From NCBI GenBank assembly GCA_937880755.1, contig CALGRX010000017.1, positions 26,737 to 90,736 on the forward strand: a stretch of 64,000 bases of DNA, read 5' to 3'. Numbering within the stretch: position 1 is the first letter of the stretch; every line of letters begins with the position of its first letter. Below the pieces are notes generated by a model. The model saw only the letters and a list, made by a program, of their open reading frames with translations, was not told the origin of the DNA and did no database searches. Shown here one piece after another: positions 1-20,650 of this stretch. The position numbers and the translations under genes are program-made. This DNA is from an uncultured Clostridia bacterium (GTDB taxonomy: Bacteria > Bacillota > Clostridia > Christensenellales > UBA3700).

Positions 1-1
1 T

Positions 2-3125: not shown

Positions 3126-3133
3126 ATTGAACA

Positions 3134-3205: not shown

Positions 3206-3541
3206 ATGAAAAATTATATTTATTGTACAACCACTGCAAAAGGTGAACAAACCTTTTATTTAATGGCACAAGGAACAAAATTCTTTCTCTTTGTGCAAGC
3301 ATATAGAAGAAGTAATAAAGAAGTTTTTGAACAAGGAATTTCTTTATACGATTTAAGAAAACTAAAAAAGCAGTGTAGTTATAGCGTAAGGCATACGGCG
3401 GAGAAAATCCCTGCGCATATACGCTATATTGAACAAGAATATGGTATTTCCGTTATGGAAATGACCAAACGTAAGCAATCTAATTGGAAAAACAAGAAGA
3501 GATTTATAGTAAACAATTCTTTTGATTGGGAGGTTGCGTAA
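3206..3541 (+). CDS. Hypothetical 111-aa protein, translationally coupled to the ADP-ribosylglycohydrolase gene
   Basis: GGGAGG lies 6 nt upstream of ATG 3206. The stop TAA at 3539-3541 abuts ATG 3542. I recognise no family. Confidence 0.55.
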   Translation: MKNYIYCTTTAKGEQTFYLMAQGTKFFLFVQAYRRSNKEVFEQGISLYDLRKLKKQCSYSVRHTAEKIPAHIRYIEQEYGISVMEMTKRKQSNWKNKKRFIVNNSFDWEVA

Positions 3542-4375: not shown

Positions 4376-4441
4376 AAGAACAACATTATTGATATTTTTT
4401 GAAACGATAATAATATTTCTTTACTATCAACATAAAAACTG

Positions 4442-4494
4442 TTGCAAAATCTTTACTTTTGGGGTATAATATTACCATAAGAAGTAAAGATTTT
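4442..4494 (+). promoter_or_regulatory. Sigma-A-type promoter with a 13-bp perfect inverted repeat bracketing the -10 box (candidate operator for the HTH-Fic gene)
   Basis: TTGCAA (4442-4447), 17-nt spacer, TATAAT (4465-4470). The inverted repeat is AAAATCTTTACTT (4446-4458) / AAGTAAAGATTTT (4482-4494). A related half-site TCTTTACT sits at 4418-4425. Confidence 0.6.
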
Positions 4495-4511
4495 GTTTTT
4501 ATAGGTGAAAA

Positions 4512-5414: not shown

Positions 5415-5427
5415 AGAGGGCTGAATT

Positions 5428-6339
5428 ATGTTTAAGCATTTAAGAGAAATTGATTATAAGTTATATGAACGTTATTTAACGTTGGAGAAAAATATCAAGG
5501 CAGATAGTAATTCGTTTTACGATGCTTACCTTGATTTGCAAGAGCAATTTGTAAAAGACGTTGCTGTTTTTTGTGAGTTTGATATTAAAGCAAGAGAAAC
5601 TTGTGGAGAACTTTTAAGAAGAGAAGATATAAAAAACTTCTTTAAAGATGTGCTTCGTGTGGATGATTTTACTTATACCAAAATGCAGGATTATACTTTA
5701 AAGGTTAATGCTCATAAACACAAAGGCGAGAAGAATATTCAAATAGATACGATAGTTAGCTATATGAGAATTATTTATGATGCAACAGTTTCTTTTGCTG
5801 TTTACAAACAAATTTCAGTAAAAGAGTTTGATGCTAACTATTTTATTTCGATTTTTTGTTCTTTTGAACGTGAGAATTCTGTATTAAAAACAGAGATGAT
5901 GAAACTAAAAGAAGAACTCTTGGTTTCTGTGGAAAGTGGAAGGCTGAAGGATAGCGATATCGCGGAATATAAAAGTCTACTTTCGCAGTCAGAAATAGAT
6001 AAATTAAGCTTAGAAGAACAAAACCAAGAATTACATAGACAGATTAGTAAACTAAAAGACATTAAACTTTCATCAATGGAAGAGAAGTTAAACAAAACAA
6101 TAGATTTACTACACGAATTAAGTGATAGCGTTGTAGAAAATAGGGCTGTTGCTTATGCTGCAGGTGATGCTATTTGCGGGAAGGAAAGATTCCAAAAATA
6201 CGTAGATGGAGCAAAGGAGTTATGGAAAAAGGCAAAAGCCGGCGTAGACAAGGTTAATGAAACGCTTGGGATAGGTGTTGCTGTAACTAAAGGGATAAAT
6301 GAGATAACTAAGTTATTTACGGGTGAAGAAGATGAATAG
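5428..6339 (+). CDS. Hypothetical protein: N-terminal helical domain plus C-terminal coiled coil
   Basis: Starts 13 nt after the Fic stop. It contains a KVNAHKH segment reminiscent of the N..aH motif of DUF4145/Abi-type helical domains. Residues 150-230 show heptad-like E/K/L-rich sequence. Confidence 0.5.
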   Translation: MFKHLREIDYKLYERYLTLEKNIKADSNSFYDAYLDLQEQFVKDVAVFCEFDIKARETCGELLRREDIKNFFKDVLRVDDFTYTKMQDYTLKVNAHKHKGEKNIQIDTIVSYMRIIYDATVSFAVYKQISVKEFDANYFISIFCSFERENSVLKTEMMKLKEELLVSVESGRLKDSDIAEYKSLLSQSEIDKLSLEEQNQELHRQISKLKDIKLSSMEEKLNKTIDLLHELSDSVVENRAVAYAAGDAICGKERFQKYVDGAKELWKKAKAGVDKVNETLGIGVAVTKGINEITKLFTGEEDE

Positions 6340-7120
6340 TTCAGATAATTTATACGATAGAGTGGACGGGGTAGAGTCTAAAGTAGATGATGTTTCGGCA
6401 AAAATGGATAGTCTTACGGCAAAAATTGATGGGCTATTAACGATAAAACAAACGACAACAACGACTCCTCAAACCGAAAATCCACAAGTTGTATTAAAGC
6501 GATTTATTTCAAAAGCAAAAAAAGAATATTGTTGGCTAGGTTCAGAAACTGATTTTCAAAAGGAAAAGAAAACGGCCCTAATACTTCTTGCCGCTTTAAT
6601 TGGGACAATTGTCCTTTCAATGATTTTTACGAGCATCGCTTTTGGGTTATATAGCACGTTTACGTTATTTGAAAATATTTGGCTTATTATGATGTGTTTT
6701 ATGGCTTTTTACTTGGTAAAAGCTAAGCGTTTTTATGATTGCTATGAATTTTCATTGACGAGTTGCTTTAAGTTTGAACCTGATGCGGACGGAGTGCTAC
6801 GCATGGGTGCTCCTAATAAAAAATACAAAGTATTTTTAGTCTTAACTTGTATATCTGCAATTTGCAATATTATAGTTGTTTGGATGGAAAATAAAAATGG
6901 GATGGCATTACCCGCTACGATTTTTGAATTAGCGGTTTTGGGGTTAAGTATATTTGTATTTAATTTTAAGGCATTAGATTTTTTCTATGGGTATTCGAAT
7001 TTGCGTTTTACGGGTGCAAATGAAACAACAGGGCAAAAGGTTGTTTTGATTTATGAACCGATAATGAATAAACTTTATACTGAAGAAGATTATTTAAAGC
7101 AATTTCCGTTTTGCAAATAA
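6323..7120 (+). CDS. Hypothetical membrane protein (coiled-coil N-terminus, about 4-5 TM helices)
   Basis: Overlaps the previous gene by 17 nt. Hydrophobic stretches include LILLAALIGTIVLSMIFTSIAFGLY, IWLIMMCFMAFYLV, VFLVLTCISAICNIIVVW and LAVLGLSIFVF. Confidence 0.55.
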   Translation: MKKMNSSDNLYDRVDGVESKVDDVSAKMDSLTAKIDGLLTIKQTTTTTPQTENPQVVLKRFISKAKKEYCWLGSETDFQKEKKTALILLAALIGTIVLSMIFTSIAFGLYSTFTLFENIWLIMMCFMAFYLVKAKRFYDCYEFSLTSCFKFEPDADGVLRMGAPNKKYKVFLVLTCISAICNIIVVWMENKNGMALPATIFELAVLGLSIFVFNFKALDFFYGYSNLRFTGANETTGQKVVLIYEPIMNKLYTEEDYLKQFPFCK

Positions 7121-7134
7121 AAAACGTTCTTCCC

Positions 7135-7356
7135 TTATACAGAGAAGAACGCCAAAAAGTCTATATCAAAAATTTTTGAAAGTTCTTGCAAGATACGAAT
7201 ATCGTAGATACCTTTGTTTACCCATCTTCCGATAGTGCGAACGTCAGTGCCGAATTCAAAAGCGAATTCTTCTTGCGTTTTATACTTTGAGTTTTTGATA
7301 AGACGTTTGAGATTTGCCCCAGCAACTAAGCCAGGGTCTTTGATATTTTGTTCCAT
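7135..7356 (-). CDS. XRE-family HTH transcriptional regulator
   Basis: LKRLIKNSKYKTQEEFAFEFGTDVRTIGRWVNK is a typical Cro/CI HTH. GGAGG SD upstream. It is divergent from the Abi gene. Confidence 0.7.
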   Translation of the reverse strand: MEQNIKDPGLVAGANLKRLIKNSKYKTQEEFAFEFGTDVRTIGRWVNKGIYDIRILQELSKIFDIDFLAFFSV

Positions 7357-7466
7357 AATATCTACCTCCTTTGCTTATCAAAAACGAAATGCTCCAGAGA
7401 TTTATATTAAGAACAAGTATATTATACAATAAAAACACAAAAATTACAATCGGTTTTGAGGTTTAT

Positions 7467-8210
7467 ATGAGTAAAGAGTGGTTGAAAAAAATTAAAATGA
7501 CATTAGAAGAAAGAGAAAATCTTCAAATGTGGTGTGAAAATATCGGGTATGAAAGATATGAAAAGATTTATGATTTAGTAGCATGTGTAAAACAAAATGA
7601 TTGCGTAAACTATGAAGAATTAAGAGCAATTGCAAAGTATGATTTTTCGCTTTCCGATATATTGCATTCGATGATGAAATTGGTCGAATTGCGTTTTCGT
7701 TCCTATTTAATCAATCGATATGGACCTATTAAATTAACTAAGACCGGTTATATACACGAAATAACGAGAGAACTTGGTAAAAATGAAAAAATGTTGGATT
7801 GTTCTACTTACTACGATAATAAATTAAAACCAACTACGACATTGAAAAATTTTCTTGAAGTTTCAGGTTTGGAAACGATGTTTAAGGTATTGCTAGTTTT
7901 AAGCGATGAGGAATTAAAAGCTTTTGAGCGAGATTCAAATACATTTAGAGACAATTTAACTATCATAAGGACAATGCGTAACAAAATCTCGCACGGACAA
8001 TATCTATTGGGTGAAAAGACTGAGTTAAAACAGGCTTTTATGTTGTTGTTAAAATATATGCCGACAAAGGAAACAAAGAATAGAAGAATAAACGAATTAG
8101 AAGACCTGAATAAGCGCCTTTTCTGTATAGAAAGTAATATACAAAAAGAATTAATGGAAGAGATACAAATAACATTAAACGACGACGAGCTTGAAGAAAT
8201 AGGATTATAG
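7467..8210 (+). CDS. Abi_2 (AbiD/AbiF-like) abortive-infection family protein
   Basis: YDFSLSDILHSMMKLVELRFRSYL and IIRTMRNKISHGQYL match the conserved Abi_2 blocks. ATG 7467 is preferred over the track start 7371. Confidence 0.65.
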   Translation: MSKEWLKKIKMTLEERENLQMWCENIGYERYEKIYDLVACVKQNDCVNYEELRAIAKYDFSLSDILHSMMKLVELRFRSYLINRYGPIKLTKTGYIHEITRELGKNEKMLDCSTYYDNKLKPTTTLKNFLEVSGLETMFKVLLVLSDEELKAFERDSNTFRDNLTIIRTMRNKISHGQYLLGEKTELKQAFMLLLKYMPTKETKNRRINELEDLNKRLFCIESNIQKELMEEIQITLNDDELEEIGL

Positions 8211-8286
8211 GACAAAACTTGTCCTGTTAAAAAGTTTTCGTTTCTTGTACAATGTAGTCAAGAAAAACGCAAGGAGCGAAAACAAA

Positions 8287-8718
8287 ATGGAAAAATACTT
8301 TTCAGTAAAAACAAAATGTGGACATGTTGGTAAATATCATTGTGTATGGATTAACTTTGCAATCTATGCAGAAACGGCAAAAGAGGCCGCAAGTAAAGTA
8401 AGAGAGATTGGTCGTGTAAAACGTCACCATAAAGATTTTATTAGCAGTATTGAAAAACTTGACTTTGATACATTTATGAAATTAAAAGCACAAAATGATG
8501 CAGATCCATATTTGCATTGTAAGAGTGTTCAAGAGCAGCGCGCCATAGAAGGTTTTGAAGAAAGAATCGAGCTTGATGAATATAACATTGCAAGATTTTC
8601 AAAAAAGACGACTAAGAAAGAATCGTTAGAGTTTAGGGTGAAGAGAGCGAACGCCAAAGAAAAAAGTCATAAACGAGCTTTGAAAGAATATTTTTACGAG
8701 GAGGCGATAGCATGGTAG
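8287..8718 (+). CDS. Hypothetical protein (first gene of the nucleotide-metabolism operon)
   Basis: AAGGAG SD before ATG 8287. Overlaps the nrdG start. I recognise no family. Confidence 0.5.
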   Translation: MEKYFSVKTKCGHVGKYHCVWINFAIYAETAKEAASKVREIGRVKRHHKDFISSIEKLDFDTFMKLKAQNDADPYLHCKSVQEQRAIEGFEERIELDEYNIARFSKKTTKKESLEFRVKRANAKEKSHKRALKEYFYEEAIAW

Positions 8719-9146
8719 TATATATCAATTCAATAAAATTTAATCGCAGTCTTGTAGATGGCCCGGGCGTAAGAACAGTTGTATTCTTTCAAGGATGTGA
8801 TTTGCATTGTAAAGGTTGTCAAAATCCTTCTACTTGGGAAATGAAAAACGGAACGGAAATGACAACAGACGAACTTGTGACAATTCTAAAAAAAGAAGTT
8901 ATTAACAAAAAGGTTACTTTCTCAGGTGGAGAACCTTTGATGCAAGTAAATGCACTTATTGATGTAGTAAAAAAACTTGAAGGGTTTGATATTGCTGTGT
9001 ATACAGGACATGCGTTTGAAGAAGTTCCGCAAGAACTTTTAGATAATATTACTTATATTAAAACGGGTTCTTTTAAGGAAGAATTTAAGTCTACGGTAAA
9101 ACCATACGTCGGTTCTACAAATCAAGAATTTAGGAGGGTGAAATAA
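8712..9146 (+). CDS. nrdG: Anaerobic ribonucleotide reductase activating protein (radical SAM)
   Basis: GPGVRTVVFFQGCDLHCKGCQNP contains the CxxxCxxC cluster motif. Small size, and it lies immediately upstream of nrdD. Confidence 0.85.
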   Translation: MVVYINSIKFNRSLVDGPGVRTVVFFQGCDLHCKGCQNPSTWEMKNGTEMTTDELVTILKKEVINKKVTFSGGEPLMQVNALIDVVKKLEGFDIAVYTGHAFEEVPQELLDNITYIKTGSFKEEFKSTVKPYVGSTNQEFRRVK

Positions 9147-10837
9147 TGCAAAAATGTAATGAAAATGCAGCTAATCGCTATAGTTACGTTGGCGAAGTTT
9201 ATAACGTTGGCGAAAGCAAAAGAAAAGAAGAAATACTAAATAGCCTTCCTAGTGAGTGGAGCGACCTTCATAAAAAAGGTTATATTCATATACACGACCT
9301 TGACGCTTACGGACTTACTTATAATTGCCTTACCTTTAATTTATTGAAAGATTTTCCGTATGAAAGATTTAAGGACATGAGCGAGCAAAGAAAAATCCTT
9401 GCTACGTTTGAATATATTAAGAAACTGTTTGCTGATATCGGCAACGAACAGTCGGGCGGTATGGCAATCGCTAACTTTGATAACGAAATTGCTTATATTT
9501 TAGAAAATTTAGGCGTTGATTTTAACGAAGATAATAAAAACACGATTGCAAACGTTATTTACAATCTAATCGTTTGGTGTAGCGAAACGCATACCCGTAT
9601 GGGACAAACTTCTTATTACGTTTCTCTTAATATCGGTCTTGCTAAAAATGAATTTGCACGCTTTATAGCATTTACGCTTATTGATGAGTTTGAAAAAGCA
9701 GGGGATTTAATCTTTAAACCAAACATTATTTTCAAAGTTAGAGGTGGGATAAATCGTTTTGAAGAAGATAAAAACTACGATTTGCTTAAAAAATCACTGC
9801 TATGTACGGCTAAAAAGATGATACCTACTTACGTTCTTTGCGACAGCGAGCCGAATAAAAACGTTGATGCCGAAAAGCTTGCCATTATGGGTTGTAGAAC
9901 GAGAGTTGTAGCAGATTTATTTGGCGAAAATTCTTCTATTGGCCGTGGAAATATTGACAACATTTCAATCAATCTTCCTAGACTTGCTTTAGAAGTAGAT
10001 AGAGATTTTGGTAAACTTTCCGTTGATGAGAAAATCGCAAAATTCATTGATAAATGGGATAGCGTTGCCAAAATTACTAAGGATATTTTGATTGATAGAT
10101 TTAATAAGGTGTGCGCTCGTACTTCAGAAGAATTTCCTATCAATAAAAAACATCATCTTTGGATAGAAGATTTTGATGACGTTAAGAACGTTTTCCGCCA
10201 CGGAACGTTATCTCTTGGATTTATAGGTCTTTCTGAAGCGTTTGAAGTGTTGACGGGCGAAAGATATTATAACAATGCGGACGTATACGTTTCAGCGCTT
10301 GGCTTTGTTAAGCATATGCGTGATTATTGTGAGTTTTTAAGAAAAGAGTATAACCTTAATTTCTCACTTTTGGCAACGAGTGGTGAACTTATATCGGGTA
10401 GATTCATTGATATGGATAGAACGGAATTTACGCCGTCTCCTCAAATCTTTAAAAAAGAGTTTTATACAAATTCTTTCCATATTAACGTTGATAGTGATTT
10501 ATCAGCATTTAGGAAAATTCAGTTAGAAGGTCTTTTCCACGAAGTTTGCAACGGTGGCTGTATTACCTACGTTGAACTTGGCGAAGCTCCACTTGGAAAC
10601 GACGAAGGCTTACTTGAATACGTTGAACATGCTATTAAATCAGGTGTTCACTATCTTGGGTTTAATTTCCCTAAGGACGTTTGTAACGGGTGTGGCGCAA
10701 GCGGAGTTTTTGACGAATGCCCCGTTTGTAAAAGTAAAGATATTACGAGAATTCGTCGAGTTAGTGGTTATTTAGAAATTTTAGACGGATTTACCAAAGG
10801 CAAAAAGAACGAAGAAAGAAATAGGAGAGCAAACTAA
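9146..10837 (+). CDS. nrdD: Anaerobic ribonucleoside-triphosphate reductase (class III)
   Basis: C-terminal glycyl-radical motif RIRRVSGYL preceded by the zinc ribbon CNGCG...CPVCKS. TAATG coupling with nrdG. Confidence 0.85.
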   Translation: MQKCNENAANRYSYVGEVYNVGESKRKEEILNSLPSEWSDLHKKGYIHIHDLDAYGLTYNCLTFNLLKDFPYERFKDMSEQRKILATFEYIKKLFADIGNEQSGGMAIANFDNEIAYILENLGVDFNEDNKNTIANVIYNLIVWCSETHTRMGQTSYYVSLNIGLAKNEFARFIAFTLIDEFEKAGDLIFKPNIIFKVRGGINRFEEDKNYDLLKKSLLCTAKKMIPTYVLCDSEPNKNVDAEKLAIMGCRTRVVADLFGENSSIGRGNIDNISINLPRLALEVDRDFGKLSVDEKIAKFIDKWDSVAKITKDILIDRFNKVCARTSEEFPINKKHHLWIEDFDDVKNVFRHGTLSLGFIGLSEAFEVLTGERYYNNADVYVSALGFVKHMRDYCEFLRKEYNLNFSLLATSGELISGRFIDMDRTEFTPSPQIFKKEFYTNSFHINVDSDLSAFRKIQLEGLFHEVCNGGCITYVELGEAPLGNDEGLLEYVEHAIKSGVHYLGFNFPKDVCNGCGASGVFDECPVCKSKDITRIRRVSGYLEILDGFTKGKKNEERNRRAN

Positions 10838-10844
10838 GTTGGCA
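10824..10844 (+). repeat. 21-nt gene-junction repeat, copy 1 (GGAGAGCAAACTAAGTTGGCA)
   Basis: Contains an SD, the stop TAA of nrdD and the TTG start of the next gene. It recurs 553 bp downstream with one mismatch. Confidence 0.9.
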
Positions 10845-11390
10845 ACGTTTTTTACGAGTGATATACATTTTAGCGACGAACGAATAATGAAACTATGTGA
10901 TAGACCATTTTCAAACGTTAAAGAAATGGACGAATACATTGTTGATAAATGGAATAAAAAAGTTTCTGATAACGATAAGGTTTGGATTTTAGGAGATATT
11001 GTTAGCCCAGAACACTTTGATAAAGATTTACTTAATAGGCTAAATGGTAAAATATATCTAATTTTAGGTAATCACGATTATCCTGTAAGAGAATTAATTG
11101 CGAGCGAAACAAAGATAGAACTTTGCGCTGAAAATGCCTTGTATTATGATAATAACATTGTTATGTTTCATTATCCAATTATGGATTGGAATGGTAGGGA
11201 TGTCGGAACTATTCACTTATATGGTCACGTTCATAATAAAAAAATTGCAGGGATGAAAGAATATTATGCAGATAAACTTGCATTTAACGTTTGTATGGAC
11301 GTAAACGATTTTGAGCCAAAAACGCTTGATGAATTAATAGAAAAAGAAGGCAAAAAAGATTTGATTAAAAAAATTGGGAGGGCAAACTAA
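10839..11390 (+). CDS. Calcineurin-like metallophosphoesterase
   Basis: FFTSDIHFSD, ILGDIVS, LGNHD and GHVH are metallophosphatase motifs. TTG start with an SD 9 nt upstream. Confidence 0.7.
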   Translation: MATFFTSDIHFSDERIMKLCDRPFSNVKEMDEYIVDKWNKKVSDNDKVWILGDIVSPEHFDKDLLNRLNGKIYLILGNHDYPVRELIASETKIELCAENALYYDNNIVMFHYPIMDWNGRDVGTIHLYGHVHNKKIAGMKEYYADKLAFNVCMDVNDFEPKTLDELIEKEGKKDLIKKIGRAN

Positions 11391-11397
11391 GTTGGCA
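11377..11397 (+). repeat. 21-nt gene-junction repeat, copy 2 (GGAGGGCAAACTAAGTTGGCA)
   Basis: Same SD-stop-TTG arrangement as copy 1. Together the two copies exactly flank the phosphoesterase gene. Confidence 0.9.
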
Positions 11398-11967
11398 CAT
11401 ATTGCTATTGAAGGAATGGACGGTGTTGGTAAAACTACGACTTGTAAATTATTAGCAGAGCGTCTTGGATATAAATTTATAGAAAAAAACTTACGTTTTT
11501 TGTTCGACGAAAACGACGAGTTTGATAACTATTTCAAAATTCGTGATAAGGTAAATGCTAATCCCGATAGATTGTTTACTTCGTGGTTTTATGGGCTTGG
11601 AAATATTTATCTTTACACGATGTTTAAGGACGAAAATATTATTACCGATAGACATTTCCTTTCTAACTATGCTTGGAGCGGAACGGACGATAATACCGAA
11701 GTTTATGATTTGCTTGTCAAAAAACTTGGATTTCCCGATTTAACGGTTATTTTATACGCTGATGAAACGGCAATATTTAATCGTTTAAGAAGTCGCGATG
11801 AACACGATAGCGACCTTGACAAAGTAAAAAAAGCAAAAGAGAAGTACGAAAAAATGGTTTTCTTCTGCGAAAAATATAAAATGCCGTACATGGTTGTGGA
11901 TACGAGCAATCTTACTCCCGACCAAACGGTAGAACTCATTATGAAACGTATAGAAGGTAGAGCGTAA
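11392..11967 (+). CDS. Thymidylate/deoxynucleotide kinase-like P-loop kinase (element-encoded)
   Basis: P-loop IAIEGMDGVGKTT at the N-terminus and a lid-like NRLRSRDEHD. The TTG 11392 start mirrors the upstream junction. The track start 11374 lies inside the SD. Confidence 0.65.
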   Translation: MAHIAIEGMDGVGKTTTCKLLAERLGYKFIEKNLRFLFDENDEFDNYFKIRDKVNANPDRLFTSWFYGLGNIYLYTMFKDENIITDRHFLSNYAWSGTDDNTEVYDLLVKKLGFPDLTVILYADETAIFNRLRSRDEHDSDLDKVKKAKEKYEKMVFFCEKYKMPYMVVDTSNLTPDQTVELIMKRIEGRA

Positions 11968-13631
11968 TGGCTATTAGTATGGATATGAAATACACCGCTT
12001 TATATTGGGCGCTTCGTTTTGTTGAAAACGAACTTGACGTTCACGTTAAAGATTATAGCGGTTATAAAATTATCATTGATGCCGAAAAGCAGTCGGTAAA
12101 CTATGGCGATAAAATCAGAGTGCTTGGTAAAGAGTTAAACTTTTTGAAAAGGCACAAAGATTTTGTTGTTTTAGAGTGCGTTGATAGGTTGCTACTTAAA
12201 GGCTTTAAGCCTACTGATATCGTTTTAGACGGCAGGGCAAATTGTCCTGATATTGTTCTTAATGGCAATATCGAAATTTACTGCGAACAGTGGGGTAAGG
12301 ATTATTTATCGGCTACAAAAACTTTTAATCCCGATAAGAACAACGTTGTTTTATATACGTCAAGACTCGTTAGTGGGCTTTTGGAATATAAAAACATTAT
12401 CAAAGTAGATAACGAGGCGTATAATTATGGTTTATTTGAGCCAAGCGTGCCTTTATATTCGATAATTCCGCAAAAAGCAAAAGAAGTCGTTATCGAGCAA
12501 ACAGCAGATATTGACGACTATGAAATTTTTGAAGATGAACTTATAACGTATAGGGGGAAATCAAAAGTAGTAAAACTTCCCGAAGGGATTACTACCATTG
12601 GTGCAAGCGCATTTTGGAATAATACGTTCGTAGAAGAAATTATTTTGCCAAAGTCGTTAAAAAGGCTTGGCGGTGATTGTTTTTATTACTGTACAAATCT
12701 AAAAAAAGTTAATATTCCAAGCGAAGTCTGGATTATGGGTAATAACCCTTTCGCAGGATGCCCAAGTCTTGAAATTATAAATGAAAGCCCGTATTTTGTT
12801 TTAGAAAACGGTGTTTTATATAATCAAGATAAAACCAATTTAATTCATTATACGATAAGCAAAACGGATAAAAAATTTATCGTTCCCAATGGCGTTACTT
12901 GTCTTGGTAAACATTGTTTCTTCGCTTGCGATAATTTAGAGAAAATCGTTGTTCCCGAAAGTGTTATTCGCTTTGAAAACAACCCGTTTTCAGGTTGTAC
13001 AAGGTTAAGTGTTGACAATAAAAGCCCATATTATCATTTTGGAAATGGTGTTATTTATAACAAATTCAAAACGACAATTATCGGCTGTTTGAACGGCAGT
13101 CAAATTGATAGGCTTGTAATTCCTGAAACCGTTACCCTTATTAGCCGAAATTCGTTTTGGAATTGTAAGGGCGTTAAAAATATCGTAATTACTAAAAACG
13201 TAGATAGAATCGGATATAATCCGTTTGCGGGTGCAGAAAATCTTTTATTAGAGAGCGAGAGTCCATTATTTATAGCCGAAAATGGTATCATTTATGACAA
13301 AGATAAAACACATATGCTTTGCGCTACAAACCGTGCGGTTGGCAAAACGTTCAAAGTTCCCGATAGCGTAACTCACATAAATCGCGGAGTGTTTAGTGGT
13401 TGTAAAGATTTGGAGCAAATTGACTTTAACGGTGTTACCTATATTGATAAAAGTTCTTTTACAAACTGCACGTCGCTAAAAGAAGTTTATATCCCCGATA
13501 GCGTTACGTATGTAGGGGAATGGGTGTTCTCTTATTGTAAAAACTTAAAAATGATAAGCATTAATAAAAACACGTTTGTAGATAAAAATGCTTTTAACGA
13601 GTGCCCGGCAGAAATTATTTGGAGAGATTAA
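11967..13631 (+). CDS. Cytoplasmic BspA-type leucine-rich-repeat protein with a unique ~190-aa N-terminal domain
   Basis: At least 11 repeats of the type IP.SVT.IG..AF..C..L, in three blocks separated by SPYFVLENGVLYNQDKT-like linkers. No signal peptide or TM segment. Confidence 0.7.
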   Translation: MAISMDMKYTALYWALRFVENELDVHVKDYSGYKIIIDAEKQSVNYGDKIRVLGKELNFLKRHKDFVVLECVDRLLLKGFKPTDIVLDGRANCPDIVLNGNIEIYCEQWGKDYLSATKTFNPDKNNVVLYTSRLVSGLLEYKNIIKVDNEAYNYGLFEPSVPLYSIIPQKAKEVVIEQTADIDDYEIFEDELITYRGKSKVVKLPEGITTIGASAFWNNTFVEEIILPKSLKRLGGDCFYYCTNLKKVNIPSEVWIMGNNPFAGCPSLEIINESPYFVLENGVLYNQDKTNLIHYTISKTDKKFIVPNGVTCLGKHCFFACDNLEKIVVPESVIRFENNPFSGCTRLSVDNKSPYYHFGNGVIYNKFKTTIIGCLNGSQIDRLVIPETVTLISRNSFWNCKGVKNIVITKNVDRIGYNPFAGAENLLLESESPLFIAENGIIYDKDKTHMLCATNRAVGKTFKVPDSVTHINRGVFSGCKDLEQIDFNGVTYIDKSSFTNCTSLKEVYIPDSVTYVGEWVFSYCKNLKMISINKNTFVDKNAFNECPAEIIWRD

Positions 13632-13632
13632 A

Positions 13633-14466
13633 TTGAAAAATCTAATTATTGAAAGTGATAACTTAATAGCAATGCAAAATTTGTTACCTGCATACGAAGG
13701 GAAAATCGACGTTATGCCGATTGACCCACCTTACAATACCGAGATAGATTATATCGAGTATAAGGACGGGAATTACGATAACGGGTGGATTAACTTTATG
13801 CAAGCGCGTTTAGAAGTAGCATATAAATTGCTATCTAAAAACGGTGTTATGTTTATCCATATAGACGAAAACGAATTGCTTTCACTTACGATGCTTTGCT
13901 CTAAGATATTCGGTGCGAAAAATATTCTTACTATGGTTTGGAAAAAGACAAATGAAAGATTTGACAAAAACCGTAAAGAGAAACCTTTAGAAAGTGGTAT
14001 TCGTAGAACGCACGAATACGTTTTGCTTTGTTTTAAGGATAGAGAACGTACGACCTTAAATTCTATTAAACAACCTGTTTGGAACGGCAAAGAATACGAA
14101 GAAAAAGAAAAGTCACTTGAGACGGTTATAGACGATTTAGGAACGACTTCTTCTGCAAAAGATGAACTTACTTGTCTTTTAGGCGATAGAAGCATTTTCT
14201 CAACACCAAAACCCGTAAAACTTATAAAAGAATTTGTTAGAGCGGGAAGCAATAAAAACTCTATTATCCTTGACTTTTTTGCAGGTAGTGGAACGACTGG
14301 ACACGCCGTTATGGACTTAAATAAAGAAGATGATGGCAATAGAAGGTTTATTCTTATAACGAATAACGAAAGCAATATTTGTAGAAAGGTTACAATTCCG
14401 AGGATTCAAAAAGCGATTGATAAGTTTGAATATAAAGAAGATTTAGAAATAGTATTATCGGAGTAG
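13633..14466 (+). CDS. DNA methyltransferase (N6-adenine/N4-cytosine, beta-class order), orphan
   Basis: DPPY at 13723-13734 precedes the SAM motif FFAGSGTTGHA near the C-terminus. TTG 13633 has GGAGAG upstream, 1 nt after the LRR gene stop. Confidence 0.8.
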   Translation: MKNLIIESDNLIAMQNLLPAYEGKIDVMPIDPPYNTEIDYIEYKDGNYDNGWINFMQARLEVAYKLLSKNGVMFIHIDENELLSLTMLCSKIFGAKNILTMVWKKTNERFDKNRKEKPLESGIRRTHEYVLLCFKDRERTTLNSIKQPVWNGKEYEEKEKSLETVIDDLGTTSSAKDELTCLLGDRSIFSTPKPVKLIKEFVRAGSNKNSIILDFFAGSGTTGHAVMDLNKEDDGNRRFILITNNESNICRKVTIPRIQKAIDKFEYKEDLEIVLSE

Positions 14467-14470
14467 CGTT

Positions 14471-14794
14471 ATGGCGATAAAAGAAATCAACGTGGAAAAC
14501 GGTTTTACTAGCGATGAGGCGCTCGCTTACGTTAAACAAGTCTTATCTAATAGTAAAAAGGCTTGTATTTACATTATTCACGGCTACGGCAGTAGTGGAA
14601 AAGGTGGCGTTATTCGTCAAAAAGTCAGAAGTTTTCTAAATGCTCAATTGAAAAATGGCAAAATAAAAGCCGTAATTAACGGCGAAGATTTTAACGTGTT
14701 CAATTTTAAGGCGTTAGAACTCAAAAATAAATATAAAGAGTTAGAGCAACTTTTTAGAGTTTGCAATCACGGTGTTACAGTGGTTGAAGTGTAG
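14471..14794 (+). CDS. Smr (small MutS-related) domain protein
   Basis: IYIIHGYGSSGKGGVIRQKVRSFL matches the Smr core (IHGkG...l...v..wL). Confidence 0.55.
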   Translation: MAIKEINVENGFTSDEALAYVKQVLSNSKKACIYIIHGYGSSGKGGVIRQKVRSFLNAQLKNGKIKAVINGEDFNVFNFKALELKNKYKELEQLFRVCNHGVTVVEV

Positions 14795-14811
14795 AAGGAA
14801 AAATTAAACTA

Positions 14812-15990
14812 ATGAAGTATTGTTTTTTTGATATAGAGTGCGCAAATTGCTTTAAGGACAATAATGGTGTTTCTCGTGGTAAGATTTGCGAGTTTGGATA
14901 TTTAATTACGGATGAGAATTTTAATAAAATTGAATCTGCTGAATATATAATTAATCCCAAGGCACCTTTTGATGAATACGTGTTGAACAATATGTTGGCG
15001 TATCCTAAACAAGTATATTTATCAGCGCAAGATTATAACACTTTCTATGATAAGATTAAACGTATATTTGAGCTTGATGAGATAATATTTATTGGACATA
15101 CGATAGATGCTGACGCTAAATATTTAAATGACGAGGCGTTACGATATAAAAAACCTTATTTTAATTATAAGTTTTATGATGCAAAGTATATGTATTCCGA
15201 TTATTCAAACATCAAAAAAAGTGTTGGTTTGGAAAAAATAAGTCAGACATTTGGAAATAAAACACGTCATCATGAACATCGTGCAGAAGATGATGCTTTT
15301 ACAACAATGCTTATAGTAAAAGAGATGTGCGAAAAATTAGATATGGATTTAATGTCACTTATAGAGCTTTCTGAAGATTGTGCAGGACAAACGATAGATG
15401 GTAAAATTACAACCGTAGCGAGAGAAAAAGCACAAGCTAGAAGGGAAGAATGTGAAAGAAACGGAACAGACCATTCTAATAGTTTATATAGCGATAATTA
15501 CATTAAATTTATGCAGTTCTTAGATGGTGTAAAAAGACAAGGAGAAATTATCCCTAGTGTGTTAAATGGAAAAAGTTTGACTATTACACTTAATTATCAA
15601 AACGTGCATTATAAAGAAATGCTTGCGCTTATTCAATTGTTGAAAAATCACGATTGCATATACAAATTAAAAGCTTCGGAATGCGATTATATGGTAACCA
15701 AAGTTGTTCTAAACGACGACGGAAGTGAAAGAACATGTTCAAAATTGAAATATGTAAATCAAGCGATAGAAAATGGTAAGAAAATTAATATAATAACGTT
15801 TGAAGAGCTGTTAGAGATATTAAAAGTGACGGACAAAGAATTAACTCAGATGCCATTCCCGGATGAGAGCTGTTTTCTTAAAAAGAGGAAAGAGAACAAT
15901 CTAAAAAAAGAAAAAATAAGGTATTCAAGTGTAGAAGATTCTACTACGACGATAGGAGATATCTTAAAAGCAAAAGGAATAACAATTTAA
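14812..15990 (+). CDS. DEDDh 3'-5' exonuclease (DnaQ-like) with a BRCT-like C-terminal domain
   Basis: ExoI FFDIECAN, ExoII IGHTIDADAKYL, ExoIII HRAEDDA. The C-terminal GKSLTITL...MVTKVV resembles a BRCT domain. Confidence 0.7.
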   Translation: MKYCFFDIECANCFKDNNGVSRGKICEFGYLITDENFNKIESAEYIINPKAPFDEYVLNNMLAYPKQVYLSAQDYNTFYDKIKRIFELDEIIFIGHTIDADAKYLNDEALRYKKPYFNYKFYDAKYMYSDYSNIKKSVGLEKISQTFGNKTRHHEHRAEDDAFTTMLIVKEMCEKLDMDLMSLIELSEDCAGQTIDGKITTVAREKAQARREECERNGTDHSNSLYSDNYIKFMQFLDGVKRQGEIIPSVLNGKSLTITLNYQNVHYKEMLALIQLLKNHDCIYKLKASECDYMVTKVVLNDDGSERTCSKLKYVNQAIENGKKINIITFEELLEILKVTDKELTQMPFPDESCFLKKRKENNLKKEKIRYSSVEDSTTTIGDILKAKGITI

Positions 15991-16005
15991 TAAAATTCAA
16001 CAATT

Positions 16006-16042
16006 AAGACTCTGTGCAAGGTTATCTTGTGCAGAGTCTTTT
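16006..16042 (+). terminator. Rho-independent terminator ending the long 8287-15990 transcription unit
   Basis: 15-bp stem AAGACTCTGTGCAAG / CTTGTGCAGAGTCTT (two G-U pairs), 5-nt loop, then a T-tract. Confidence 0.75.
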
Positions 16043-16100
16043 AATGCTTTCATTCCGTGGTGGATGAGAGAAAAACTTTAATAAATTTTAGCAAAGTGTA

Positions 16101-16132
16101 GCCCACTATACTTCGAGAATCGAAGTGTGGGC
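16101..16132 (+). other. Candidate oriT (imperfect inverted repeat next to a GTGTG motif upstream of the relaxase)
   Basis: GCCCAC-TAT-ACTTCGA GAA TCGAAGT-GTGGGC. MobV-family oriTs are inverted repeats adjacent to a GTGTG-type nick region. Assigned from position and shape only. Confidence 0.4.
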
Positions 16133-16180
16133 TCTGCGAGGCTAAATAAAGACTATAAAATAACAAGGAGGAAAACGAAA

Positions 16181-17209
16181 ATATCATATTTAGTATGCCA
16201 TATGGAGAAATACCATAAACAAGAAGTTTCGCCCGTTGAAGAAGAAAACGAACGCGACGAAACCTTTGAAGCGGACAATCCGCAAATAGATAGCGAAAGA
16301 ACGAAAAACAATTATCATATGAACTCTAACGCCTTTGGTGGTTATACTGAGTTCATTAACAAACGGTTAAAAGAATTAGGGCTTAAACCACGAAAAGATG
16401 CTGTTGTTATGAACTCTTTCGTGGTAGGCTCGGATAAGGCGTTTTTAGATAGTTTGCCTAAAATGCAACAATACAGTTTCTTTTCAGATTGCGCCAAGTT
16501 CTTTGAGAAGAGATATGGGGAAGAAAACGTAATATCGGCGGTTGTGCATTTAGACGAAACGACTCCGCATATGCACTTAAATCTTATTCCAATCACTCCA
16601 GATAGAAGACTTTGTAGCAAGGACTTATTTGATAAGCCGAAACTACAACAACTTCAAACGGACTTTTACGAAGCAGTCGGAAAGAAATACGGGCTGCAAC
16701 GTGGCAAAGAAGGAAGCCAAGCAAAACATCTATCAACAGCCGAATACAAAGCGAAAAAGATTATAGAAGAAGCGGAAGAAATTCGACGTGAAAATCAGGT
16801 GTATGCCGATGCTTTGGAAGAAGCCAAAAACAGAGCGATATCCAAAAAGCGTGGGAAACTGCAAGAACAAGTTGTAGCGTTAACGGTTGCCAATAAAGAC
16901 TTAACCGAGCGCCTTGACCGTTCTATGCAAGATACGCTTGATGTGGTAAAGGAAAACGGTAAACTCAAAGCGGAGAAAGATAAAGATGTCAAATACGCTC
17001 AAGTTGGTAAATACATAGCAAGCAATGCACCTAATTTATGTAGAAGTATATTAAATGGGGCAAGTGCTGTTAAGGTATTCTTTTCTGCAGTAGAAGATTT
17101 ATGTAAACCAAGTGTTACGTCGCAAGTTCCCCGACTTCAAGAAATAGAAGCGGAGATTGAAGAAGAACGTGTAAAACACGAACGTAAAAATAGAAATTAT
17201 AAATATTAG
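16181..17209 (+). CDS. MobV-family (Mob_Pre) plasmid mobilisation relaxase
   Basis: HLDETTPHMHLNLIPIT is the HxDE..PHxH relaxase motif. The conserved N-terminus SYLVCHMEK begins at ATA 16181, 9 nt after AGGAGG. Alternative starts are ATG 16202 and GTG 16127. Confidence 0.8.
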   Translation: MSYLVCHMEKYHKQEVSPVEEENERDETFEADNPQIDSERTKNNYHMNSNAFGGYTEFINKRLKELGLKPRKDAVVMNSFVVGSDKAFLDSLPKMQQYSFFSDCAKFFEKRYGEENVISAVVHLDETTPHMHLNLIPITPDRRLCSKDLFDKPKLQQLQTDFYEAVGKKYGLQRGKEGSQAKHLSTAEYKAKKIIEEAEEIRRENQVYADALEEAKNRAISKKRGKLQEQVVALTVANKDLTERLDRSMQDTLDVVKENGKLKAEKDKDVKYAQVGKYIASNAPNLCRSILNGASAVKVFFSAVEDLCKPSVTSQVPRLQEIEAEIEEERVKHERKNRNYKY

Positions 17210-17261
17210 GAGGTTATATATGAATAGGCAAAACAAATTTCTCGTAAAGGTATAAAACAGC

Positions 17262-17290
17262 TTGACTATCTCGTGATAGCACGGTATAAT
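17262..17290 (+). promoter_or_regulatory. Consensus-like sigma-A promoter for the small ORF / recombinase unit
   Basis: TTGACT, 17-nt spacer, TATAAT. The spacer contains the palindrome CTATCTCGTGATAG. Confidence 0.6.
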
Positions 17291-17321
17291 AGAGGCAAGA
17301 AAAACTTTTAGGAGTGAAAAA

Positions 17322-17540
17322 ATGGAAAAACAATTAACGCCAAAACAAAAGGCAAGACAAAAGTATGAAATCATACATAAGGAAGAGCGTGAAAAAGCAA
17401 CGAAGCAATTTAACACGAGGCTTCCCGTCAAAGAATATGACGAAATTACAGCGTTTCTTAAAAAGAAAAGAATTCCAAAGGTGGATTTGATTAGAATGGG
17501 ATATCAAAGACTTTTGGAAGAGTTTAAGGAAAGCAAATAA
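17322..17540 (+). CDS. Small basic hypothetical protein (72 aa) between relaxase and recombinase
   Basis: AGGAG SD before ATG 17322. Lys/Glu-rich and helical in character. I recognise no family. Confidence 0.5.
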   Translation: MEKQLTPKQKARQKYEIIHKEEREKATKQFNTRLPVKEYDEITAFLKKKRIPKVDLIRMGYQRLLEEFKESK

Positions 17541-17831
17541 CAGCGGAACGCATTATGCGCTTAACACACCCGTAATGGTCGGGAATTGATAAGGAGAAAA
17601 TATTGTAAGGGGAATCCGTATTTATCTTTCCGTTAAAAGTGCGGATAACAAACCCTAAAAATAAAAAATGATAAGGAGAATTGGAGCAACAAAATAATGT
17701 AAACAAAAAAGAAAATACAAAAAGGGAAAATGATGAAAATTTTAACGCGTTTATCAAAGTATTGGCGCGTTTAGTACAAAAATATGGTCCAACGGTGTTG
17801 GAAGAAATAAAAAAGGAAGAGGAGGGACAAT

Positions 17832-19514
17832 ATGAATAGAGAAGGTAAAAAGTGTTTATTGTATTCTCGTGTAAGTACGGAAATGCAGGTTGACGGTTAT
17901 AGCCTTGAAGCGCAAAAGAACTGCTTAAAAAGATTTGCCGAAAGAGAAGAGATGATGGTGGTAGATGCTTATGAAGATGCAGGAAAGTCGGGTAAATCTA
18001 TTGAAGGTCGTCCTGCTTTTAAAAGAATGCTTTCCGATATAGAAAACGGTAAAAATGTTGATTACGTTCTCGTTTATAAACTTTCTCGATTTGGAAGAAA
18101 TGCGGCAGATATATTGAATTCGTTGGCGTTATTGCAAACTTACGACGTGAATTTGATATGTATTGAAGAAGGAATTGACTCGTCTCAAACGAGCGGCAAA
18201 TTGCTTATTTCGGTACTGTCTGCCGTTGCAGAAATAGAAAGAGAAAATATATTAGAGCAAACTATGAATGGACGTAGAGAAAAGGCTCGCCAAGGTAAAT
18301 GGAATGGCGGGCCTGCTCCATACGGATATACGATTAACGATGGCGTTTTGCAGATTGATGAAGAAGAAGCAAAAATCGTTAGAACGATTTATGAAATGTA
18401 TGTAAACACGAAAATCGGATATACGGGAATAGCTAAATATCTCAATTTGCAAGGCATAACAAAGAGACCAAGAAAGGAAAGTGATGCTAAAGTTTTTAGC
18501 GGGCATTTTATACAAATTTTATTAGATAATCCCGTGTATTGCGGAAAGATAGCGTACGGAAGAAGAAAACACGAGCGTATTAAAGGAAGGAAAAATGAAT
18601 ATCACGTGGTACATCAAAAAGAGTTTTCGCTTACCGATGGGTTGCACGAAGGTATCGTAAGTAAAGAACTTTGGAAAAAGGCAAGGGATAAAAGAGTGGC
18701 AACAGGAATTAAATTAGCATCAAAAATAGGTAAAGACCGCACGTATTTACTTACGGGAATATTAAAATGTCCTAAATGCGGTAGTCCTATGTATGCCAAT
18801 AGAATAAGATGGACTAAAAAGGATGGTACGGAAAAGGAAGTAATGTATTATTCTTGTAGCCGAAATAAAATGAAGCGAGGGGGCTTTTGTGATTATAGCG
18901 CTAATCTAAAGAAAACGGATATCGAACCGCTTGTTATAGGCGTTATAAAACAAATTATAAACGACGAAAGATTTGTTGAAGGTGTAAAAAGTAGTATTGG
19001 TATTCACGTTGATGAGGATAAGATTGTGGAAGAAATTAAAAATTATGAAGCAAAACTGAAAGAAGTTCAACTGAATAAAAATCGACTTGAAACGGAACTT
19101 GACACCTTGCCGATAGATGCTAAATATAGAGATAGAAAAATAAAAGATATGACGACGAGAATTGATTATATGTACGATGTAATCGCGGAGATAGAAGAAA
19201 AGATTGATGACGCACGTTATAGAAAACACGCGATTGAAGAAAAATCACTAACATTTGAAAACATATATCGAATTTTAGAGCATTTTTCTAAAATATATGA
19301 TATAATAAATGATGAAGATAGAAAAGAATTGCTCGCGGAGTTAATCAAAGAGATACATATTTATCCCGAAGGGGAAAACGAGTACCCGTTGAAGTCAATA
19401 AAATTCGCTTTTCCTATACTGTTAGACGGAAAAGAAGTAGATGAAATTTTTTTGAACAAGCCGTCGAGTGTCGAGACTTTAGTCTGTTTAACCCGTGTAA
19501 ACCACAATATATAG
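17832..19514 (+). CDS. Large serine recombinase (integrase)
   Basis: N-terminal resolvase catalytic block LLYSRVSTEMQ...YSLEAQ, a recombinase domain, the zinc ribbon CPKCGSPM...YYSC, and a long coiled coil. Confidence 0.9.
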   Translation: MNREGKKCLLYSRVSTEMQVDGYSLEAQKNCLKRFAEREEMMVVDAYEDAGKSGKSIEGRPAFKRMLSDIENGKNVDYVLVYKLSRFGRNAADILNSLALLQTYDVNLICIEEGIDSSQTSGKLLISVLSAVAEIERENILEQTMNGRREKARQGKWNGGPAPYGYTINDGVLQIDEEEAKIVRTIYEMYVNTKIGYTGIAKYLNLQGITKRPRKESDAKVFSGHFIQILLDNPVYCGKIAYGRRKHERIKGRKNEYHVVHQKEFSLTDGLHEGIVSKELWKKARDKRVATGIKLASKIGKDRTYLLTGILKCPKCGSPMYANRIRWTKKDGTEKEVMYYSCSRNKMKRGGFCDYSANLKKTDIEPLVIGVIKQIINDERFVEGVKSSIGIHVDEDKIVEEIKNYEAKLKEVQLNKNRLETELDTLPIDAKYRDRKIKDMTTRIDYMYDVIAEIEEKIDDARYRKHAIEEKSLTFENIYRILEHFSKIYDIINDEDRKELLAELIKEIHIYPEGENEYPLKSIKFAFPILLDGKEVDEIFLNKPSSVETLVCLTRVNHNI

Positions 19515-19585
19515 TATCAATTAAATCATTTTAATACAAAATATTGATTTTTATTATTTCTAAATATGTTTCGTGTCCACCTTTT

Positions 19586-19620
19586 GTCCACGCTTTTGAA
19601 ACGGCGTGGACATTTTTATT
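19586..19620 (+). terminator. Rho-independent terminator after the recombinase
   Basis: GTCCACGC / GCGTGGAC stem followed by ATTTTTATT. Confidence 0.6.
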
Positions 19621-19621
19621 G

Positions 19622-19882
19622 TCAACCAACCGTGGTTCGCTCTTTGTATATTGAATCTAACCACTTCATTAAAACGGCTTTGCAGAAGTTTGCCGACATA
19701 AATTCGTCATCATAAGACCACTCTTTCGTTGCCGTATCGTAATATAATGTAAGTTCTCCAAAGCCTATATTTTTTGCGCCCCATTGAATCTTAAAACCAA
19801 TAGTATGTTGGAAGCGTTTATTACCCTTATACATTTCGACATCGACATATTCTATTTCATACAAAAATAGGGGATTTGTCAA
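19622..19882 (-). CDS. Hypothetical protein (weak call)
   Basis: 86-codon ORF with a TTG start and no clear SD. AT-rich. Confidence 0.35.
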   Translation of the reverse strand: MTNPLFLYEIEYVDVEMYKGNKRFQHTIGFKIQWGAKNIGFGELTLYYDTATKEWSYDDEFMSANFCKAVLMKWLDSIYKERTTVG

Positions 19883-19923
19883 TAATAATTGACGTTAATC
19901 AAAATACCAAGGATACTTCGATT

Positions 19924-20424
19924 TTAACTGCCTATATCTATCCAGCGATTTCTCTTCTTCTTGCATGTGGAGTCTTTACCATTGTAACTATAAACAAATC
20001 CAAGTTCTTTTAGCTTTTTAGTTGTGAGCAATCTGCACAGCTTAAATAATAAGCTTGATGCTTCATTATAAGAACCAATTTCTAAAAACCCTGTAACCCC
20101 GTAACTGGCTGTATTTGTTTTTAATGTAGCCCAATCTACGTCGTTATTATACGGGTAAATATCCGTTGTCAACTTTCTTTCCGTATTTGGCGTCCCGAAT
20201 AAAATGTCCTTATTTGTTGGGGGAATGGTTTGTTCTAAGAAAATTTTTCGAAGTAGGGGAACTTTTGCTGTAAAAATATATGCATTCTTATCTTTGGCGT
20301 TATATCCGTGTTCCCAATTATAAGCTGAATGGATGTGATGACCATAGTCAATGTATCGTTGTACTTGACTTGAGTATTTACACCTATCTTGTAAAATTTG
20401 TTCCGGGCTGGAACAAGAAGGCAA
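19924..20424 (-). CDS. Hypothetical protein, possibly a 5'-truncated remnant
   Basis: 166 codons with no Met codon at all. TTG start, no SD. The frame closes 3 codons upstream, at the compositional boundary. Confidence 0.3.
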   Translation of the reverse strand: MPSCSSPEQILQDRCKYSSQVQRYIDYGHHIHSAYNWEHGYNAKDKNAYIFTAKVPLLRKIFLEQTIPPTNKDILFGTPNTERKLTTDIYPYNNDVDWATLKTNTASYGVTGFLEIGSYNEASSLLFKLCRLLTTKKLKELGFVYSYNGKDSTCKKKRNRWIDIGS

Positions 20425-20650
20425 CGGTAGACTCTACAAGGGATTGTTGTACAAAAATATCCAAGAGGGAGTAAAAGTGGACTTCAACCATTCTTACACC
20501 TACAAAGCTCATTCAGAGACTGACGGCGCAGAGTCTTACAAGTATACTATCGGCAACATACAAGACGGCTAAGTATATCGAGTATCTCGCAAGGGTAGCA
20601 ACGTCGTAACGCCTATTGACGATATTACTTGCGATACCCGATTCGATTAT

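Follow-up and report, generated by a model that had tools for sequence, protein, structure and literature searches.

The Mod proteins of type III restriction-modification (R-M) systems (EcoP15I, 4zcf; H. pylori, 6k0w; Mbo45V, 7dsu) have a class-beta methyltransferase core in which the DPPY motif comes first and the FxGxG motif later, a central target-recognition domain (TRD) of 91-128 residues, and N- and C-terminal extensions; an adjacent gene encodes Res. Type IIG/IIB enzymes such as BsaXI (8w2q) place a PD-(D/E)xK nuclease-type domain, a spacer and a methylase in that order in one polypeptide, and their methylase is of the gamma class (N6_Mtase/Eco57I) with a TRD that is of Methylase_S type or C-terminal. 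BspA-type leucine-rich repeat (LRR) proteins, usually read as surface adhesins, are exported or anchored. Here we describe a locus that recalls all three. It lies at positions 11967-14466 of the window, by which we mean the whole 64,000-nucleotide stretch analysed (part of contig CALGRX010000017.1 from an uncultured Clostridia bacterium), where a gene for an LRR protein is followed directly by a gene for a methylase. The best explanation is that these genes encode two halves of one enzyme of a temperate gut phage or integrative element, and the LRR protein is best explained, from sequence comparison, as the non-catalytic partner of the adjacent methylase.

Class-beta methyltransferases act as dimers, with recognition and catalysis divided, and the phage-borne class-beta enzyme M.EcoGII is non-specific (PMC7544214, PMC5778455). 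M.EcoGII resembles the enzyme described here in being prophage-carried, without a cognate endonuclease, of PF01555 class beta and a presumed shield of phage DNA (PMC5778455, PMC7544214). Unlike the window enzyme, it does not have an unusually small TRD region, nor is an LRR or nuclease-derived partner reported for it (PMC7544214).

A Mod-type methylase and its LRR partner

The LRR and methylase genes are the first two of four that end at a hairpin:

11967-13631, + strand: LRR protein, open reading frame (ORF) of 554 amino acids
11967-12446, + strand: N-terminal domain (N-domain) of the LRR protein, residues 1-160, PD-(D/E)xK-type without the catalytic ExK, homologue of the type IIG/IIB endonuclease domain
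12555-13631, + strand: BspA-type LRR solenoid, residues 197-554 (LRR_5, E 3e-53)
13633-14466, + strand: class-beta N6-adenine DNA methyltransferase, ORF of 277 amino acids with a TTG start (N6_N4_Mtase 1e-37; PADLOC MTase_III 4e-60, in separate stretches)
14471-14794, + strand: small Smr-domain protein, ORF of 107 amino acids (Pfam Smr 1.4e-7, 32.0 bits against a cutoff of 25.7, profile positions 5-53 of 77)
14812-15990, + strand: DEDDh (DnaQ/epsilon-like) 3'-5' exonuclease with a C-terminal extension, ORF of 392 amino acids (PADLOC DEDDh 7e-10)
16006-16040, + strand: intrinsic-terminator-like hairpin with a 15-bp stem (dG -21.9 kcal/mol, z -6.3 against shuffles), followed by UUUUAAU

The methylase is a type III Mod catalytic core that lacks the target-recognition insert. 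Its best sequence matches in the PDB are the type III Mod chains 6k0w, 7dsu and 4zcf (E 1e-33 to 1e-25, piecewise), and Foldseek with the model of a full-length fused relative agrees with this match. Between the catalytic half and the S-adenosylmethionine-binding half there are 9-13 residues in the window methylase, against the 91-128 that form the TRD in Mod chains (254 to 382 in EcoP15I Mod, 270 to 361 in 6k0w); the N- and C-terminal extensions of Mod are missing as well, and the core is joined instead to the N-domain and LRR module. The DPPY motif points to N6-adenine. Its D and first P are identical in 54 of 54 aligned family members, and the DPPY and FxGxG columns fall in the top conservation class. 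This family-wide retention argues that the methylase is under selection as an amino-methyltransferase, and by appearance it is active. No Res-like gene (superfamily 2 (SF2) helicase plus PD-(D/E)xK) or other endonuclease turned up among the ORFs of positions 1-20000 or in the Pfam and PADLOC scans of the island genes, so that nothing like the Res of type III systems was found beside the methylase and its description as an orphan, in an earlier note made from the DNA letters alone, holds.

What is joined to this core begins with a domain that comes from restriction enzymes. Residues 20-92 match the N-terminus of the PADLOC model REase_MTase_IIG (E 4e-12). A homologue search with residues 1-190 returned close relatives in which LRR_5 follows, then distant ones with HSDR_N_2, some of them named 'type I restriction enzyme M protein'; one locus found with the N-domain (L066) encodes a complete type IIG enzyme (HSDR_N_2, N6_Mtase/Eco57I and Methylase_S). 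A sequence search of the PDB with the N-domain gave nothing significant, and matches came from the structure-based search alone. The AlphaFold2 (AF2) model of residues 1-190 (predicted local distance difference test (pLDDT) 72.8; predicted template modelling score (pTM) 0.73; pLDDT 84-93 for the N-domain when the fused relative is modelled at full length) has a nuclease-type fold, its best Foldseek match being the type IIB enzyme BsaXI (8w2q_B, E 8e-4, probability 1.0) and the next Hjc resolvase. By profile, homologues and model alike, the N-domain is a true homologue of the type IIG/IIB endonuclease domain, and the fused relatives described below keep the type IIG/IIB order of nuclease-type domain, spacer and methylase.

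The family differs from type IIG/IIB enzymes on several counts. Its methylase is PF01555 class beta with no Methylase_S, an LRR solenoid serves as its spacer, and the N-domain has lost a 'QLFTY' segment as well as the catalytic ExK. In the alignment, 'RLDI...LIECK' of the restriction enzymes corresponds to 'PDIV...EIYCE' in the window protein, so that the catalytic E-C-K has become Y105-C-E107. Across the 54 members the E position holds K, Y, R, T or N and the K position Y, F, E, V or I, while D95 is retained in 32 of the 54 and the structural residues E70, C106 and W109 are conserved. The N-domain thus reads as a nuclease relic. The earlier note had seen a weak PD-(D/E)xK / HsdR_N-like pattern here: the homology stands, and the motif is degenerate, not weak.

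The rest of the protein is LRR. It comprises about 11 units, eight of which match the strict pattern, and three SPYF..NG.(L/I)Y linkers (residues 274-290, 353-369 and 432-448) split the units into four blocks; the earlier note had at least 11 units in three super-repeats, and these become four blocks with three linkers. The same repeat type and fold, and linkers of the form '..F...DGVLY.KD.T', occur in the BspA-type surface proteins 4gt6 (F. prausnitzii), 4h09 (E. ventriosum) and PcpA (4cp6), and these are also the Foldseek matches of the confidently predicted LRR region of the fused relative P0393. Unlike those proteins, the window LRR protein has no signal peptide, hydrophobic N-terminus, anchor or transmembrane (TM) segment (maximum Kyte-Doolittle 19-residue mean 0.9), a hydropathy result in agreement with the earlier note; it is coupled to a methylase in a nucleotide-metabolism operon, and in the AF2 model its N-terminus is a folded nuclease-like domain and not a surface anchor. 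We take it to be cytoplasmic, as its sequence indicates. An exact-sequence look-up of this protein gave no record.

How do the two halves fit together? The AF2 model of P0393 (pLDDT 81.6, pTM 0.59) is confident for the body formed by N-domain and LRR and for the methylase, each taken separately. Between them, residues 556-567 have pLDDT below 50 and form a low-confidence flexible tether, which matches the split-gene form found in the window.

At the nucleotide level, the four genes are packed as closely as the earlier note had reported. The stop codon of the preceding kinase gene overlaps the LRR start (TAATG at 11965-11969); the LRR stop (TAA, 13629-13631) is separated by 1 nucleotide (nt) from the methylase TTG at 13633; and the gaps are 4 nt between methylase and Smr and 17 nt between Smr and DEDDh. 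A GGAGAG ribosome-binding site at 13621-13626 lies seven bases before the TTG, and an in-frame ATG at 13588 has no Shine-Dalgarno sequence. The strong terminator placed after the four genes is there too, as the 15-bp hairpin listed above, which would close the transcription unit. Promoter-like sites within the unit are no commoner than in shuffled sequence (39 against 37.8). We rejected a programmed frameshift between the LRR and methylase frames: the junction consists of a stop, 1 nt and a TTG with its own GGAGAG site, and an overlap of the two genes is unconserved, with none in the split loci L008 and L026.

Relatives, synteny and genetic setting

A scan with the N-domain profile, using one genome per species, gave 73 loci. 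Their hosts are gut Clostridia, Bacilli/Mollicutes-like bacteria, one Treponema, one Brachyspira, Bacteroidales bins and two contigs labelled Methanomassiliicoccales. N-domain, LRR and methylase form one ORF of about 800-840 amino acids in 38 loci; in 20 they are split between neighbouring genes, the arrangement of the window. The tie between LRR protein and methylase drawn in the earlier note is confirmed by fusion in 38 of 58 relatives; in all complete cases but three the N-domain and LRR are joined to a methylase. The fused relative P0393 (846 amino acids) is 62% identical to the window LRR protein and has the same neighbours, which implies that fusion and fission have recurred.

The genes upstream of the pair belong to nucleotide supply:

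8245-8718, + strand: orf8245, conserved, family unassigned, first gene of the block
8712-9146, + strand: nrdG, anaerobic ribonucleotide reductase activase, syntenic in the loci
9146-10837, + strand: nrdD, anaerobic ribonucleotide reductase (homologues carry PF13597 NRDD)
10839-11390, + strand: calcineurin-like metallophosphoesterase (Pfam Metallophos 5.5e-9, phrog_547 1.5e-45)
11374-11967, + strand: thymidine monophosphate (dTMP)-kinase-like or deoxynucleoside(-monophosphate) kinase (Thymidylate_kin 4e-14, dNK 5e-9, phrog_761 1e-23)

Searching the window proteins against six-frame ORFs of the 73 loci showed that this arrangement is conserved. The order orf8245, nrdG, nrdD, an optional phosphoesterase, a deoxynucleoside monophosphate (dNMP) kinase, N-domain with LRR, and methylase recurs across these loci and in the phage NatCom_17901. 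Of the 59 loci with enough upstream sequence, 57 have nrdD no more than 2.5 kb 5' of the LRR gene, and 51 have the kinase gene next to the LRR gene. Most of the 73 loci, and the phage too, have an orf8245 homologue directly 5' of nrdG; the window protein has no match in Pfam, NCBIfam, PHROGs or PADLOC. The nrdG homologues in L077-L079 carry Radical_SAM/Fer4_12, and the one in the phage is annotated as an anaerobic ribonucleotide reductase small subunit. The metallophosphoesterase is present in most relatives and missing from others (for example L006-L010, L013 and L016). The kinase also matches the PADLOC models PDC-M51B (6e-16) and VakA (2e-15), which is probably generic P-loop kinase similarity.

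Downstream of the methylase the picture changes from locus to locus. Smr homologues occur only in L002, L004, L005, L007 and L048, that is, in 4-5 of the 37 loci with enough downstream sequence, and DEDDh follows in about 13-15 of those 37. In other loci the same slot holds Abi_2, AAA_15/21, Schlafen-AlbA_2, a 5'-nucleotidase, a helix-turn-helix (HTH) protein, an ADP-ribosylglycohydrolase, or is empty. The complete set of four is confined to the window and L005, and the two downstream genes therefore look like variable cargo, not components of the conserved unit. As to what they encode, Smr nucleases of the MutS2/SmrA/SmrB type combine an N-terminal D-x-H/R motif with HGxG. The Smr ORF contains 'IIHGYGSSG' and has no significant PDB sequence match; its N-terminal motif reads 'NVENG' by eye, where Smr nucleases have 'DLHG' or 'DLRG'. 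The DEDDh ORF also matches phrog_192 'DNA polymerase exonuclease subunit' (1e-21), NCBIfam PRK06195 (7e-7) and DEDDh_C (5.5e-7), and the motifs FFDIE, IDAD and HRAEDD can be seen in its translation.

The four genes are the operon tail of an integrated mobile element. Positions 1 to about 20000 of the window have a GC content of 0.33-0.38, against 0.43-0.50 beyond, and every gene in them is on the + strand. Other genes of this island are as follows:

1761-3125, + strand: soluble FtsH-like AAA plus M41 protease, no TM segment noted (IetA models, 3e-27)
4512-5414, + strand: HTH-Fic protein (PADLOC defence candidate PDC-S04, 1e-100)
7371-8210, + strand: AbiD-like gene
16127-17209, + strand: Mob_Pre relaxase (E 2e-53)
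17832-19514, + strand: large serine recombinase, CcrB-like (phrog_95 integrase)

The GC content steps from about 0.35 to 0.43-0.50 at 19500-20500, just past the large serine recombinase, and this step is probably the right end of the element. The left end must lie beyond window position 1 because the first ORF (8-1681, phrog_8308) covers only profile positions 342-789 of 847. The GTG listed as the start of the Mob_Pre ORF falls within an inverted repeat at 16100-16133 (GCCCAC-TAT-ACTTCGA gaa TCGAAGT-GTGGGC, dG -20.9 kcal/mol). The repeat looks like an origin-of-transfer (oriT) hairpin, and the true mob start is probably an ATG (MEKYHK...) within the ORF, slightly downstream of its 5' end. Upstream of the nrdDG block the island also has an ADP-ribosylglycohydrolase gene. 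It thus bears several defence-type cargo genes (AbiD-like, Fic and IetA-like), unrelated to the LRR-methylase finding.

The same block is carried by a phage. A search of a phage collection with the N-domain returned one record, PV036423.1, which is NatCom_17901 (Candidatus Heliusvirales, human faeces), a complete 57-kb genome. Its gene order is orf8245, nrdG, nrdD, thymidylate kinase, LRR, methylase, adjoining serine recombinases, and it also encodes homologues of the window Fic protein and of orf5428. Its LRR and methylase genes are annotated as hypothetical. Elsewhere, the nrdDG-kinase-LRR block stands on the two contigs labelled Methanomassiliicoccales, which are archaea (L032, LJKL01000016.1, 202 kb; L036, MVRC01000006.1, 243 kb); the genes that flank it there (AddAB-like, radical SAM and RloB) are not diagnostic between cross-domain transfer and mis-binning.

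What the pair may do

On balance we think it probable that the pair is an orphan N6-adenine methylase of a phage or mobile element, a Mod core with an accessory LRR half, co-expressed with genes that supply deoxynucleoside triphosphates (dNTPs) so as to protect the DNA of the element. A low-GC island with relaxase and serine recombinase, a complete phage genome with the same block (PV036423.1), and a search for endonucleases that found none all fit such an enzyme. Expression of the operon would come with replication of the element or with its entry into a cell. The methylase would then mark adenines in the DNA of the element and, where this is a prophage, in that of the host, and DNA so marked would escape cutting by restriction systems, as expected of an orphan protective methylase. 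The LRR and N-domain half would replace the missing parts of Mod (the TRD, and the contacts for dimerisation or with a partner) and anchor the catalytic core to its substrate or to a partner protein that is itself conserved. The pair closes the conserved part of an operon that serves also to make DNA precursors, through nrdG, nrdD, the phosphoesterase and the dNMP kinase. The comparisons show the homologies, the fusion, the synteny, the lost nuclease residues, the missing TRD and a phage that carries the block; from these, DNA as the substrate, a protective role and any ligand of the LRR are inferred. By analogy with the class-beta enzymes described above, it is plausible either that the enzyme is non-specific or that the accessory half supplies recognition.

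Several observations weigh against this reading. The bulk charge of the N-domain (median -5, pI 5.1) and of the LRR (median 0) across the 54 members gives no sign of DNA binding, and the AF2 model of P0393 predicts neither a fixed geometry between LRR and methylase nor a joint DNA-binding surface. In three loci (L027, 9445-15039; L032, 11626-16607; L054, 5942-8590) the N-domain-LRR protein is followed, in place of a methylase, by a GT4 glycosyltransferase-Sel1-LRR_5 protein, and in L027 and L032 also by an AAA_14-LRR_5 protein; one of the GT4 proteins matches PF20706 'GT4 in conflict systems', and all are cytoplasmic LRR-enzyme fusions. These partners suggest that the LRR may be a general assembly or targeting device, broader than methylation. 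The linkage to nrdDG and the kinase may be plain co-inheritance in one element lineage. Among IMG/VR viral contigs only one locus has the block, and in L077 (GCA_900198705.1, 3853-16040) the block, with DEDDh and Fic, forms a compact island of about 12 kb amid housekeeping genes (a HAD hydrolase on one side; L28, TPK, RsgA, PknB and PP2C on the other) that has no integrase and no phage structural genes. The N-domain has no match in a plasmid collection. From the plasmid result, the single IMG/VR contig and the L077 island it follows that phage is not the sole vehicle: the block travels on temperate phages, on the mobilisable island of the window, and as remnants.

The earlier note had put a different reading first, an R-M-like surveillance module of all four genes that protects the host: the LRR protein would sense foreign DNA or protein, Smr and DEDDh would degrade, and the methylase would mark self. 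The genes are indeed tightly packed with a hairpin at their end, the methylase sits beside two nuclease-family proteins, the N-domain derives from a restriction nuclease, the island carries AbiD-like and Fic (PDC-S04, 1e-100) cargo, and in other loci defence-type genes take the slot after the methylase. However, the four genes are not conserved neighbours, an outcome that the note itself had named as refuting; they meet only in the window and in L005, with Smr rare and DEDDh in about one-third of loci. The ExK of the N-domain is lost throughout the family. Mean pairwise identity over the 54 members is 0.535 for the LRR, 0.545 for the methylase and 0.43 for the N-domain; an LRR as conserved as its methylase is under purifying, not diversifying, selection, a pattern that speaks for a conserved ligand, not for a receptor under diversification. 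The genes that stay with the pair are those of nucleotide metabolism, and the block stands in a complete phage genome. Nor did the PADLOC-DB v2 models match any multi-gene system; the hits were to single components (MTase_III, a stand-alone DEDDh 'cas-associated' model and kinase models; elsewhere AbiD, Fic/PDC-S04 and an IetA-like AAA). The surveillance module is thus unsupported and, in our view, very unlikely. The alternative offered by the same note, a phage replication or anti-restriction module in one transcription unit with nrdDG, is the one we favour, the same block being present in a complete phage genome.

A conserved ligand could also be a protein. LRRs are protein-binding scaffolds, and one can imagine anti-defence in which the LRR and the dead nuclease domain bind and block a conserved host protein, such as a restriction or other nuclease complex, much as the LRR of ribonuclease inhibitor blocks RNases, or dock the methylase on a replisome, with methylation secondary or coupled. 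An acidic N-domain and a neutral LRR suit a protein ligand better than DNA, the strong conservation of the LRR points the same way, the N-domain mimics a type I/IIG nuclease domain without its catalytic residues, and the variant loci have LRR_5 in fusion with GT4 and AAA_14 enzymes too. But the hosts span Clostridia, Bacilli, a spirochaete and archaeal bins, so that a single target would need to be very widespread, and selection for methylation itself is evident from the invariant catalytic motifs. We regard this reading as rather unlikely. Distinctly unlikely is the idea that dead-nuclease N-domain and LRR form an unrecognised targeting or specificity module for enzymes with which gut phages modify nucleic acids, here in place of the TRD. 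This would be a modular, LRR-guided modification platform for DNA or a conserved host protein, and in the three loci without a methylase it would take the GT4 and AAA_14 proteins as partners.

Could the methylase act before replication, on nucleotides? A dNMP made by the phosphoesterase would be modified, still free, by the TRD-less methylase and re-phosphorylated by the kinase, with the LRR as scaffold of the complex, by a logic like that of T4 dCTPase, hydroxymethylase and gp1 kinase. In its favour, nrdDG and a dNMP-kinase-like gene accompany the methylase almost without exception, a phosphoesterase usually does, and the methylase has no DNA target-recognition insert; whether non-specific class-beta enzymes methylate adenine derivatives is untested according to a review (PMC7544214). 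Yet the phosphoesterase is missing from several loci (L006-L010, L013 and L016), and co-inheritance can explain the synteny. We know of no PF01555 or Mod-family enzyme that acts on free nucleotides. Pre-replicative modification is in our judgement extremely improbable.

Place of the family

Neither an LRR_5-methylase fusion nor the nrdDG-linked block came up as described in our literature searches, and the Heliusvirales paper refers to generic methyltransferases only. What is novel is the accessory module of N-domain and LRR on an orphan phage methylase; this does not amount to a new class of defence system, and for annotation there is one false candidate fewer. Gut metagenomes contain many members of the family, and these are poorly named. 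The fused form has 956 clusters at 90% identity (E<=1e-30, gut metagenomes) and the window LRR protein 1243 clusters (E<=1e-40); further down the lists both counts take in other LRR_5 proteins, and the two may overlap. The names given, where there are any, are 'DNA modification methylase', 'leucine-rich repeat domain-containing protein' or 'hypothetical protein'.

For the proteins themselves the family has two messages. BspA-type LRRs also have an intracellular, enzyme-coupled role, and the recognition domain of a type III Mod can be absent while the core persists, attached to another module. Should the enzyme be non-specific, phages would have a further anti-restriction methylase besides M.EcoGII. 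If the LRR half sets the choice of substrate, it would represent a new principle of methylase targeting, and possibly a tool.

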